Below are positions 29 to 4,235 of a DNA stretch of 4,235 nt, piece after piece. The DNA is from a virus (Duplodnaviria; Heunggongvirae; Uroviricota; Caudoviricetes). The notes beneath the pieces were generated by a model. It was not told where the DNA came from. It worked only from the letters and a program-made list of their open reading frames with translations, and searched no databases. Where the stretch lies: the IMG/VR virus record IMGVR_UViG_2703719354_000013, positions 1-4,235 of that record; one strand, written 5' to 3'. The translations under genes and the position numbers were made by a program. Position 1 is the first letter of the stretch, and every line of letters starts with the position of its first letter.

Positions 29-706
29 ATGGCAACGACGAACGCATTCTGTCTGGCGTCACCGCCACTGGCACGCATCTGCCTTCACGGGGATTTACAA
101 CGATTTGGCCGCCGCCTCAGCCTGTACGTGAACACGGCAGCGGAAGCCATCCGTGCCCTGTCGCTGCAGGTGCCGGGATTCCGCCGCCAGATGAACGAAG
201 GCTGGTACCAGATACGTATTGCCGGTGATGACACGGCACCGGAGGCGGTGTATGCCCGCCTTCACGAACAACTGGGTGAGGGGGCGGTCATCCATATTGT
301 GCCGCGACTGGCCGGTGCAGGGAAAGGCGGACTGCAGATTGTGCTGGGGGCGGCAGCCATCGTGGGCTCTTTCTTCACGGCCGGAGCATCGATGGCAGCC
401 TGGGGTGCAGCGCTGAGTGCCGGCGGTTTTTCTGCCACCACGATGCTGTTTTCACTGGGTGCCAGCATGATTCTGGGTGGTGTGGCACAGATGCTGGCCC
501 CGAAGCCAAAAACACCGGAATACAGGGCAACGGATAACGGTAAACAGAACACGTACTTTTCGTCGCTGGATAACATGATTGCCCAGGGTAACCCTATGCC
601 GGTGCCTTATGGTGAAATGCTGGTTGGTTCACGACGGATATCCCAGGACATCAGCACCCGTGATGAGGGCGGAGACGGGAAAGTGGTGGTTATCGGGCGG
701 GGATGA
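29..706 (+). CDS. I: Phage tail assembly protein I (lambda gpI family), complete, 225 aa
   Basis: ATG at 29 is preceded by a GGGAGAGG Shine-Dalgarno at 10-17 and the frame is closed upstream by TAA at 5-7; stop TGA at 704-706. The translation (MATTNAFCLASPPLARICLHGDLQRFGRRL...GAVIHIVPRLAGAGKGG...NGKQNTYFSSLDNM...VVVIGRG) matches lambda gpI as I recall it in length (about 223 aa) and along its length, including the glycine/alanine-rich central stretch. A search was not run. Confidence 0.9.
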   Translation: MATTNAFCLASPPLARICLHGDLQRFGRRLSLYVNTAAEAIRALSLQVPGFRRQMNEGWYQIRIAGDDTAPEAVYARLHEQLGEGAVIHIVPRLAGAGKGGLQIVLGAAAIVGSFFTAGASMAAWGAALSAGGFSATTMLFSLGASMILGGVAQMLAPKPKTPEYRATDNGKQNTYFSSLDNMIAQGNPMPVPYGEMLVGSRRISQDISTRDEGGDGKVVVIGRG

Positions 707-744
707 AAATAAAAAAATCCCGCAGAGTTAGCGGAGCTGCGGGA
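707..744 (-). terminator. Rho-independent terminator-like hairpin plus U-tract on the - strand
   Basis: An 8-bp stem, TCCCGCAG (718-725) pairing with CTGCGGGA (737-744), has an 11-nt loop. Read on the minus strand the hairpin is followed immediately by TTTTTTTATTTT (complement of the A-run 707-717). On the + strand no U-tract follows the hairpin, so it is unidirectional for minus-strand transcripts. Confidence 0.45.
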
Positions 745-751
745 GAGAACG

Positions 752-871
752 ATGAAGATTAACGTTATGGAGTTATTTTTCAGGCATCAAAAAAGTAACG
801 CAGCGTCATTATTGCGGCTACAGGCAATTGCCGGAAATGTGAAGAGTTTCAGAAATTTTATTCCGTCATGA
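752..871 (+). CDS. Small hypothetical ORF, 39 aa, basic peptide MKINVMELFFRHQKSNAASLLRLQAIAGNVKSFRNFIPS, in the I-J spacer
   Basis: ATG at 752 lies 6 nt downstream of a GGGAGAG/GGAG Shine-Dalgarno (741-747); stop TGA at 869-871 is followed 1 nt later by a strong intrinsic terminator. It sits in an AT-rich insert (about 38% GC over 751-870 by my count). I recognise no homolog, and it is below the length cut-off of the ORF track. It could be non-coding. Confidence 0.3.
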   Translation: MKINVMELFFRHQKSNAASLLRLQAIAGNVKSFRNFIPS

Positions 872-872
872 C

Positions 873-904
873 ACAGGCACCCTCCGGGGTGCCTGTTGTT
901 TTCT
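873..904 (+). terminator. Rho-independent terminator-like hairpin plus U-tract on the + strand
   Basis: A perfect 10-bp stem, ACAGGCACCC (873-882) pairing with GGGTGCCTGT (887-896), closes a TCCG tetraloop (883-886) and is followed directly by TGTTTTCT (897-904). It lies between the small ORF stop and the J Shine-Dalgarno. Confidence 0.5.
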
Positions 905-930
905 GGCATAAACAGATTCAGACATCAGAC

Positions 931-946: not shown

Positions 947-3900
947 GTGGGTAAAGGGGGCGGCAAGGGGCACACACCGCGTGAGGCGAAGGATAATCTC
1001 AAATCCACGCAGATGATGAGTGTGATTGATGCGATTGGTGAGGGACCGATAGAAGGCCCGTTGAAGGGACCGCAGAGTATCCTGGTGAACAAAACCCCGC
1101 TGACGGACACGGACGGTAATCCCGTGATACACGGTGTGACGGCGGTCTGGCGTGCCGGGGAGCAGGAGCAGACACCACCGGAAGGCTTTGAGTCCTCCGG
1201 AGCTGAAACCGGACTGGGCGTGGAAGTGACGAAGGCAAAGCCGGTGACGCGCACCATTACGTCCGCGAACATTGACCGCCTGCGGGTTACCTTCGGGGTG
1301 CAGTCACTGGTGGAGACCACCTCAAAGGGTGACCGTAATCCCTCTTCTGTCCGGCTGCTGATTCAGCTTGAGCGTAACGGTAACTGGGTGACGGAAAAGG
1401 ATGTCACCATTAACGGCAAGACCACCTCGCAGTTTCTGGCGTCGGTGATTCTGGATAATCTGCCGCCCCGTCCTTTTAACATCCGGATGGTCCGGGAGAC
1501 AGCGGACAGCACCTCGGACCAGCTGCAGAATAAGACGCTCTGGTCGTCATACACCGAAATCATCGATGTGAAACAGTGCTACCCTAATACGGCGATTGTG
1601 GGCCTGCAGGTGGATGCGGAGCAGTTTGGTGGCCAGCAGATGACGGTGAACTACCATATCCGCGGTCGCATCATTCAGGTACCGTCAAACTATGACCCGG
1701 AAAAACGCACTTACAGCGGTATCTGGGACGGCAGCCTGAAACCGGCATACAGCAATAACCCGGCCTGGTGCCTGTGGGACATGCTGACCCACCCGCGCTA
1801 CGGCATGGGAAAACGCCTGGGGGCGGCGGATGTGGACAAGTGGGCACTGTATGCCATCGGGCAGTACTGTGACCAGACGGTCCCGGATGGTTTCGGGGGC
1901 ACAGAGCCGCGGATGACCTTCAATGCGTACCTGTCACAGCAGCGTAAGGTCTGGGATGTCCTGGGGGATTTCTGCTCGGCGATGCGCTGTATGCCGGTAT
2001 GGAACGGCCAGACGCTGACGTTCGTTCAGGACCGCCAGTCGGATGTGGTGTGGCCGTACACCAACAGCGATGTGGTGGTGGATGATAACGGCGTGGGGTT
2101 TCGCTACAGCTTCAGCGCCCTGAAGGACCGCCACACGGCGGTGGAGGTGAATTACACCGACCCGCAGAACGGCTGGCAGACCTCCACGGAACTGGTGGAA
2201 GACCCGGAAGCCATACTGCGCTACGGGCGCAACCTGCTGAAGATGGATGCGTTCGGTTGCACCAGTCGCGGTCAGGCCCACCGTGCCGGGCTGTGGGTGA
2301 TAAAGACCGGACTGCTGGAAACGCAGACGGTGGATTTCACGCTCGGGTCACAGGGGCTGCGTCACACACCCGGTGACATTATTGAAATCTGTGATAACGA
2401 CTATGCCGGGACCATGACCGGCGGACGTGTCCTGTCCATCGATGCCGCCAGCCGCACCCTGACGCTGGACCGTGAGGTGACCCTGCCGGAGACCGGTGCC
2501 GCCACGGTGAACCTGATTAACGGCAGCGGTAAGCCGGTGAGCGTGGCCATCACTGCACACCCCGCGCCGGACCGGATACAGGTCAGCACCCTGCCTGATG
2601 GTGTGGAGACATACGGTGTATGGGGACTCTCCCTGCCGTCACTGCGTCGTCGCCTGTTCCGCTGTGTCTCCATCCGGGAAAACACGGACGGCACCTTTGC
2701 CATCACGGCGGTGCAGCACGTACCGGAAAAAGAAGCCATCGTGGATAACGGGGCCAGCTTTGAGCCGCAGTCAGGCACCCTGAACAGCGTTATTCCACCG
2801 GCAGTGCAGCACCTGACGGTGGAGGTGAGCGCGGCTGACGGTCAGTATCTGGCACAGGCGAAATGGGACACGCCGCGGGTGGTGAAGGGTGTGCGCTTCA
2901 GTCTGCGCCTGACCAGCGGAAGCGGAGAAGACAGCCGTCTGGTGACCACCGCCATCACTGCGGATACAGAGCATCGTTTCAGTGGTCTGCCGCTCGGGGA
3001 ATACACCCTGACAGTCAGGGCAATTAACAGTTATGGCCAGCAGGGGGAACCGGCCACCACCACGTTCAGGATTAATGCACCTGCGGTACCCGCCACGATT
3101 GAGCTGACACCGGGCTATTTTCAGATAACAGCGGTCCCGCGTCTTGCGGTGTATGACCCGACGGTACAGTTTGAGTTCTGGTTTTCGGAAACGCGGATTA
3201 CCGATATCAGGCAGGTTGAAACCACAGCCCGCTACCTTGGCACGGGGCTGTACTGGATAGCCGCCAGTATCAATATCAAACCGGGCCATGATTATTACTT
3301 TTATATCCGCAGTGTGAACACCGTTGGCAAATCGGCATTTGTGGAGGCTGTTGGCCAGCCGAGTGATGATGCATCCGGCTATCTGGATTTTTTCAAAGGA
3401 GAGATAGGGAAAACCCATCTGGCTCAGGAGTTGTGGACTCAGATTGATAACGGTCAGCTTGCGCCTGACCTGGCGGAAATCAGAACGTCCATCACGGATG
3501 TCAGTAATGAAATCACGCAGACCGTCAATAAGAAACTGGAAGACCAGAGTGCAGCGATCCAGCAGATACAGAAGGTTCAGGTTGATACAAATAATAATCT
3601 GAACAGCATGTGGGCTGTGAAGCTGCAACAGATGAAGGACGGACGCCTTTATATTGCGGGTATCGGTGCCGGTATTGAGAATACGCCAGCAGGAATGCAG
3701 AGTCAGGTGCTGCTGGCGGCAGACAGGATTGCGATGATTAATCCTGCGAATGGCAACACAAAGCCGATGTTTGTTGGTCAGGGCGATCAGATATTCATGA
3801 ACGACGTGTTCCTGAAACGCCTGACGGCTCCCACCATTACCAGCGGCGGTAATCCTCCGGCATTTTCCCTGACACCGGACGGAAAGCTGACCGCTAAAAA

Positions 3901-4235
3901 TGCAGATATCAGTGGCAGTGTGAATGCGAACGCCGGGACGCTCAACAATGTCACAATTAATGAGAACTGTCAGATTAAGGGGAAACTGTCAGCCAACCAG
4001 ATTGAAGGCGATATAGTCAAAACAGTGGGTAAGGCTTTTCCGCGGGACTCCCGGGCACCGGAGCGGTGGCCATCAGGGACCATTACCGTCAGGGTTTATG
4101 ACGATCAGCCGTTTGACCGGCAGATTGTTATTCCGGCGGTGGCATTCAGTGGCGCTAAGCATGAGAGAGAGCATACTGATATTTACTCCTCATGCCGTCT
4201 GATAGTGCGGAAAAACGGTGCTGAAATTTATAACC
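947..4235 (+). CDS. J: Host specificity protein J / central tail fibre (lambda gpJ family), 5' complete, 3' end runs off the window
   Basis: The frame is open from GTG at 947 to the last base with no stop, about 1096 codons. The N-terminus [22 protein letters not shown] aligns with lambda gp[23 protein letters not shown], and long blocks match ([131 protein letters not shown]). AGGAG at 931-935 with a G-run at 936-940 precedes the GTG. It is absent from the supplied ORF track presumably because it has no in-window stop codon. Confidence 0.93.

Follow-up and report, generated by a model that had tools for sequence, protein, structure and literature searches.

Phage and prophage RNAs related to the locus

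The OOP RNA of phage λ is a short phage-encoded cis-antisense RNA that has its own promoter and an intrinsic terminator. It overlaps the 3' end of cII and acts on the cII mRNA through RNase III. Nearer to the locus described here are three Hfq-CRAC peaks, EcOnc22, EcOnc23 and EcOnc24, reported from prophages Sp15, Sp14 and Sp11 of E. coli O157:H7 Sakai (Tree et al. 2014, PMC4104026, Table S2). The corresponding RNAs are antisense to I/J, measured ~85 nt on Northern blots and were destabilised in Δhfq (PMC4104026). RNase E-CLASH returned hybrid reads labelled EcOnc22/23/24 (Waters et al. 2017, PMC5286369), including hybrids with yjbJ (ECs5028) and ECs5349 that comprised 1-2 reads with weak statistics; a 2021 review gave the targets as unknown. 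Furthermore, an 83-nt RNA named PasB was reported from prophage PP6 of EPEC E2348/69 (Pearl Mizrahi et al. 2021, PMC8550237, Table S6). PasB fell by log2 6.8 in Δhfq, took part in 37 RIL-seq interactions and is listed with a U-tract of 7 (PMC8550237; Table S5 for the U-tract), and it was more abundant under the non-activating condition than under the activating one. According to a recent preprint, PasB lies embedded in a phage structural-gene operon and has a 3' stem-loop and poly-U terminator, with a seed proposed just upstream (Zhu, Shabalina and Storz 2026).

Comparison with these systems places the hairpin and U-tract at positions 706-744 of the sequence examined, with high confidence, as the Rho-independent terminator of a known prophage sRNA, EcOnc22/23/24, of which PasB appears to be an allele. 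The EcOnc22/23/24 RNAs occupy the same I–J spacer in antisense orientation, the spacer differing from the present one by 1 nt (G799→A, RNA sense); their probe and CLASH fragments match the sequence, the RNA is Hfq-bound and Hfq-stabilised, and nothing essential is different. PasB is likewise Hfq-dependent and shares the position and orientation, the terminator stem, the U7, the -10 box and a CRP-like box, but differs in an insertion of 6 nt within the body, in a loop reading …GCGAUCA… where the present allele has …GCUAACU…, and in having AUUGAUCUUC in place of GUUAAUCUUC.

Other prophage sRNAs resemble the locus in type. AgvB, AsxR and HnrS (EcOnc10-12) are also short Hfq-binding prophage sRNAs, carried as late-region morons, often multicopy and ended by an intrinsic terminator, and AgvB and AsxR share with the present sRNA a conserved 3' part joined to a variable 5' part. 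Their sequences are different, however, and their loci lie downstream of Q/PR' or near lysis genes. Identity with AgvB or AsxR, suspected from an ACAACA stretch near position 890, was rejected on the different sequences and loci and on the lack of any RF02702 or RF02703 match at E ≤ 1. Identity with HnrS (PLoS Pathog 2026, "up to nine copies") was also rejected, HnrS being EcOnc10-12 and a different sRNA. Like OOP, the present sRNA is a short phage RNA that is transcribed opposite to an adjacent gene and terminates at a hairpin and U-tract; unlike OOP, it overlaps an open reading frame (ORF) that is not conserved, and published data point to Hfq-mediated trans interactions.

Genomic setting of the I–J spacer

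The window, that is, the whole stretch of 4,235 nt that was analyzed, comes from a lambdoid EHEC prophage, in which it covers the tail region around I and J, as indicated by sequence identity and Pfam domains. A stretch of 271 bases around the hairpin was 100% identical to E. coli O157:H7 prophages and 99.6% identical to Stx1 phage VT1-Sakai (Sp15). Of the 5,426 complete E. coli genomes, 802 contained this stretch, with a median of 3 sites each and no more than 9. The protein-coding and plus-strand features that frame the spacer are as follows.

29 to 706, plus strand: tail assembly gene I (Pfam Lambda_tail_I, E = 3.4e-16; RefSeq annotation of the identical locus)
873 to 905, plus strand: terminator-like hairpin with a 10-bp stem and loop UCCG, followed by UUGUUUUC (top hit of the terminator scan; fold)
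947 to 4235, plus strand: tail tip / host specificity gene J, GTG start at 947, running off the window (six Pfam GpJ domains; RefSeq annotation)

Gene I ends with TGA at 704-706, leaving an I–J spacer of 240 nt (707-946) that holds the minus-strand sRNA gene. The I–J gap of phage λ is only 60 nt, and its alignment with the window showed that the sRNA module, including the hairpin after I, is absent from λ and that ~180 bp carrying the module are extra in the window. In every allele examined the module occupied one place, directly following the I stop and preceding J, and it is kept in inducible Stx phages, for example in phage records H1-H30. The plus-strand hairpin at 873-905 (-27 kcal/mol, z -5.3) lies 42 nt upstream of the J start and was conserved in all alleles; λ has a hairpin and T-run at the equivalent position of its 60-nt gap. 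This hairpin, which Q-modified polymerase presumably reads through, is context and not part of the sRNA.

No Rfam 15 family matched the window at E ≤ 1 on either strand over its whole length. Neither Rfam 15 nor the RefSeq annotation of ~800 complete E. coli genomes includes the sRNA, so that scans working from sequence only keep "rediscovering" it. A 50-aa ORF at 579-731 on the plus strand (374-526 in allele L007) overlaps the end of gene I and crosses the terminator hairpin of the sRNA. Probably spurious, this ORF carries the label "hypothetical protein" in the annotation of phage 1720a-02 (KF030445).

The module was also observed in more than one copy per locus. E. coli 2014C-4135 (L015) carries two different alleles in tandem between I and J, at 184-214 and 404-435, ~220 bp apart. 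Six IMG/VR contigs (L161, L168, L200, L201, L205 and L206) have two matches each, 225-675 bp apart, as judged by match spacing alone. The tandem copies, together with mosaic combinations of loop and body, point to frequent recombination at the I–J site.

The terminator hairpin and its conservation

The terminator consists of two adjoining elements, both read on the minus strand.

718 to 744, minus strand: terminator hairpin, 8-bp stem UCCCGCAG / CUGCGGGA with an 11-nt variable loop (fold, allele conservation, PasB probe)
706 to 717, minus strand: U-tract composed of U7 at 717-711, A710 and U4 at 709-706 (sequence; the PasB 3' end aligns to 711)

On the minus strand, 744-737 (UCCCGCAG) pairs with 725-718 (CUGCGGGA) around a loop at 736-726; six of the eight base pairs are G-C, and the U7 follows immediately. 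When the minus strand from 760 to 700 was folded, the hairpin was both the minimum free energy (MFE) and the centroid structure at -13.2 kcal/mol (z = -3.6), a stability matched by none of 200 shuffles. The earlier note had placed a hairpin at 718-744 with a 7-U then 4-U tract, and sequence reading and folding agree with it on both points. A terminator consensus scan reported the hairpin only as a 5-bp sub-hairpin with a 7-nt loop, because its loop limit is 8 nt; the same scan found 8 terminator-like sites in the window, versus 3.2 ± 2.0 in shuffles. The 11-nt loop (10-11 nt in other alleles) lies outside the 3-8 nt typical of intrinsic terminators, and RNAmotif called no terminator for EcOnc22 (Tree 2014 Table S2, PMC4104026). 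Among the hallmarks of a Rho-independent terminator, the GC-rich stem and the directly adjoining U-run are thus present and the short loop is not, while an RNA 3' end at the U-run is supplied by homology only, through the annotated PasB 3' end at window position 711. On the plus strand, the sequence after the hairpin (GGGAGAGAACGATG) holds no T-rich stretch, and the terminator is therefore unidirectional, as had been claimed for right-to-left transcription.

Conservation was examined in two sets of alleles. The first, unconditioned set, selected without use of the stem, was made up of 11 distinct alleles found in phage and E. coli entries. A second set of 47 alleles was drawn from 120 IMG/VR contigs with the stem in the search pattern and is therefore uninformative on stem conservation. 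The 8-bp stem was invariant in all 11 unconditioned alleles, as were six of the seven U7 positions, the last being C in two of them, L013 and L018. Among the same 11 alleles variation was seen in the loop, in the 5' body of the RNA and even at the end of gene I, and RNAalifold returned the terminator as the sole helix in their consensus. The 47 IMG/VR alleles contained 13 terminator-loop variants.

Published RNA evidence mapped to the window

Reads and probes from the published studies were located on the window. The Northern probe for EcOnc22/23/24 (sequence from PMC4104026) corresponds to plus-strand positions 741-775, with 23 nt contiguous and identical and the remaining differences resembling text-extraction noise; it therefore detects a minus-strand RNA directly 5' of the hairpin. 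The sRNA fragment of the CLASH hybrids, GCCTGAAAAATAACTCCATAACGTTAATCTTCA, equals the minus strand from 785 to 753 at 33/33 positions, and the Hfq-CRAC peak, after correction for genome version, spans approximately 788 to 728. The correction is required in that papers on EHEC Sakai sRNAs use NC_002695.1, whose coordinates run ~128-135 nt below those of NC_002695.2 in this part of the genome; AgvB1 gave an offset of ~130 nt, and the CLASH read fixed it at +135 here. A placement of the EcOnc22 peak at 863-923, on the wrong hairpin, was discarded as an artefact of reading the uncorrected coordinates on NC_002695.2.

PasB lies antisense between two genes whose RefSeq annotations are tail assembly protein and J; its locus in E2348/69 PP6 and the EcOnc loci in Sakai Sp15, Sp14 and Sp11 all correspond to positions 707-946 of the window. 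The PasB probe, AATCCCGCAGTGATCGCGGAGCT, is the terminator hairpin with an allelic loop, and the RNA aligned to window positions 786 to 711, with 64 of the 76 window positions identical and its 3' end at the final U of the U7. NC_049945 has an I–J spacer 99.6% identical to that of the window, and by elimination this record appears to be the PasB-bearing RefSeq phage of the 2026 preprint. An explicit equation of PasB with EcOnc22-24 was not found in Pearl Mizrahi 2021 or Zhu 2026; on the alignments, the two appear to be alleles of one gene.

These data come from copies that differ from the window by 0-1 nt (Sakai) or are ~84% identical to it (PasB). In such identical or allelic copies, published experiments have shown that a minus-strand RNA of ~83-85 nt exists, ends at the U7, binds Hfq, is stabilised by it and occurs in CLASH and RIL-seq chimeras. 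The antisense transcript that the earlier note had deduced from the terminator is accordingly documented by Northern blotting, Hfq-CRAC, RNase E-CLASH and RIL-seq. The behaviour of this transcript is that of an Hfq-bound RNA that has numerous trans partners, not that of a dedicated cis regulator of the small ORF at 752-871. A 10-bp duplex between the sRNA and yjbJ was predicted (CCAUAACGUU/AACGUUAUGG); yjbJ and ECs5349 are weak candidate targets.

Transcript ends and conserved motifs

Homology with the published copies defines the following segments of the RNA.

711 to 786, minus strand: mature sRNA, 75-76 nt in the window allele (homology to PasB ends, CLASH fragment, Northern probe and CRAC peak)
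752 to 763, minus strand: single-stranded motif GUUAAUCUUCAU, candidate seed (kept in allele alignments)
769 to 772, minus strand: CUCC motif, anti-Shine-Dalgarno-like (allele alignments and consensus)
787 to 801, minus strand: possible 5' leader of the primary transcript, GCGUUACUUUUUUGA, including a conserved U-run (predicted start G801)

The motif GUUAAUCUUCAU is the complement of ATGAAGATTAAC, the apparent start of the ORF at 752-871. Most allele folds and the consensus left it unpaired, but in the MFE fold of the window allele it was partly paired. CUCC, the other conserved unpaired motif, may also be of functional relevance.

Estimates of RNA length disagreed slightly: the mapped ends give 75-76 nt and the predicted start 91 nt, the Northern value of ~85 nt falls between these two, and annotated PasB has 83 nt. 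The 5' ends given by the PasB annotation and by CLASH read starts fall at 786 and 785, respectively, while the predicted start at G801, based on the spacing of GCGTTA to the -10 box, corresponds to the 91-nt primary transcript. The mismatch between 801 and 785/786 could reflect trimming of the 5' end after the U-run, or else the use of a second, weak TAnnnT promoter at 797-792.

Candidate promoter and CRP-like site

Upstream of the RNA, two conserved elements were recognized in the allele comparison.

808 to 813, minus strand: -10 box, AATAAT in the window (47-allele comparison)
835 to 856, both strands: CRP-like palindrome AAATGTGA-N6-TCAGAAAT, upstream of the -10 box (pattern match and allele conservation)

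The -10 box read TATAAT in 17 of the 47 alleles, AATAAT in 15, TATCAT in 10, CATAAT in 2, GATAAA in 2 and GATAAT in 1. GCGTTA followed it at exactly 6 nt in 44 alleles and was not located in the other three. The box had been missed by the consensus scan because its -35 is weak. The earlier note had named a different pair, TTGATG at 790-785 with TAACGT at 767-762, as the best on the minus strand though weak. Both hexamers are present at these positions, but they lie inside the transcribed region, where CLASH reads are continuous over 785-753 and the Northern probe covers 741-775, and therefore cannot be the promoter of the RNA; a start near 755 would yield an RNA of ~45 nt, versus the 83-85 nt observed. 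The -10 box at 813-808 is the better promoter candidate, judging from its recurrence among alleles.

An invariant TTCACA (843-838, minus strand) was considered as a -35 element and rejected on its excessive spacing from the -10 box, 24 nt in 45 of the 47 alleles. This hexamer lies within the CRP-like palindrome and is better understood as part of one of its halves. At ≤3 mismatches, AAATGTGANNNNNNTCACATTT had a single match in the window, at 835-856, with 0.01 expected by chance. The site matches at 13 of 16 positions, with half-sites that are near-invariant and an N6 that is variable across the 47 alleles. Its center would lie at -44.5 from the predicted start at 801 and at approximately -60.5 from 785, compared with standard distances of -41.5 and -61.5. 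A putative CRP site would fit the higher level of PasB in the non-activating condition.

The small ORF and alternative explanations

The window allele contains a small plus-strand ORF at 752-871, with ATG at 752, 39 codons and a stop at 869-871 that adjoins the plus-strand terminator at 873-905. An SD-like GGGAGAG lies 4 nt before the ATG, and the sRNA is perfectly complementary to 741-754. This arrangement underlay the proposal of the earlier note that the minus-strand RNA is a cis-antisense regulator masking the Shine-Dalgarno sequence and start codon of the ORF, a geometry like that of type I toxin-antitoxin systems. The geometry and the antisense RNA are both real, but dedicated control of the ORF did not hold up. 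The start codon was ACG or ACA in 18 of the 47 alleles, and the remaining alleles encode products of 10-54 aa whose frames diverge past ~10 codons, so the ORF is not conserved. The 39-aa product had no Pfam or PHROG match and is not hydrophobic, and a consensus scan found no promoter-like site on the plus strand upstream of the ORF. Nucleotide conservation of ATGAAGATTAAC is accounted for by constraint on the unpaired motif of the sRNA, and the 37 RIL-seq interactions of PasB show many trans partners on Hfq. Masking of this ORF by a cis-antisense RNA is very unlikely on this evidence. A type I toxin-antitoxin pair was also rejected, given the absence of a conserved hydrophobic ORF or a family match and the loss of the start in 18/47 alleles.

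An additional or even predominant role in cis, on the Q-antiterminated late mRNA, was also considered: the sRNA would alter I–J processing or J expression in lytic growth, in the manner of OOP and the cII mRNA of λ. In keeping with such a role, the module has a constant position between the I stop and J in all alleles examined and is kept in inducible Stx phages such as H1-H30; over 75-91 nt the sRNA is fully complementary to the late transcript, as it must be by construction. The sRNA is, however, made in lysogens, which lack the late mRNA, and its Hfq dependence and multiple chimeric partners argue for trans activity, leaving cis action on the late mRNA rather unlikely. That the hairpin is a plus-strand mRNA element, for instance one that stabilises the I message at its 3' end or terminates transcription in both directions, with the minus-strand reading incidental, agrees with the ability of the same stem to form in plus-strand RNA 12 nt past the I stop. 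Such an element is scarcely credible given that no T-run lies 3' of the hairpin on the plus strand, that the A7 run (the U7 of the minus strand) is kept at 6/7 positions, as a minus-strand terminator requires, that the published 3' end of PasB falls at the U7, and that λ has no such element after I. Least credible is a terminator-like sequence that arose by chance and has no function. The bare pattern AAAAAATCCCGCAG-N8-14-CTGCGGG is indeed unspecific, occurring in at least 120 stretches of bacterial genomes, the 80 matches listed all coming from unrelated taxa. The z of -3.6 against shuffles and the invariance of the stem and most of the U-tract amid variable surroundings in the 11 alleles are not expected of a chance sequence, and the published Northern, CRAC, CLASH and RIL-seq data already refute it.

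Proposed mode of action and significance

As the terminator of an Hfq-bound, trans-acting sRNA, the hairpin would complete a transcription unit that can be sketched as follows. Transcription would proceed from the -10 box at 813-808, possibly aided by cAMP-CRP at 835-856, with a primary 5' end near 801 that may be trimmed to 785/786. From its anatomy, the terminator stem with the 3' oligo-U would serve as the Hfq-binding module, and the unpaired GUUAAUCUUCAU, perhaps together with CUCC, would be the region that pairs with trans targets. The variable 5' body and the terminator loop may diversify between alleles. The module as a whole would represent a moron-like insertion of ~180 bp relative to λ, which Q-antiterminated late transcription would read through on the other strand. 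A broader reading would combine a cAMP-CRP switch acting through the TGTGA-N6-TCAGA box, cis tuning of J or of late-mRNA processing, and allele-specific trans targets set by the mosaic body and loop, sometimes in tandem copies; this combination is possible but doubtful.

The sRNA itself is already known, having been detected in 2014 and again in 2021, with its distribution analyzed in 2026, and as a discovery the present result matters little. Linking the names EcOnc22-24 and PasB pools the Hfq-CRAC, CLASH and RIL-seq evidence. Furthermore, the -10 box, the CRP-like box, the seed-like motif and the complementarity to the late mRNA provide concrete hypotheses on the function of this sRNA that can be put to the test.
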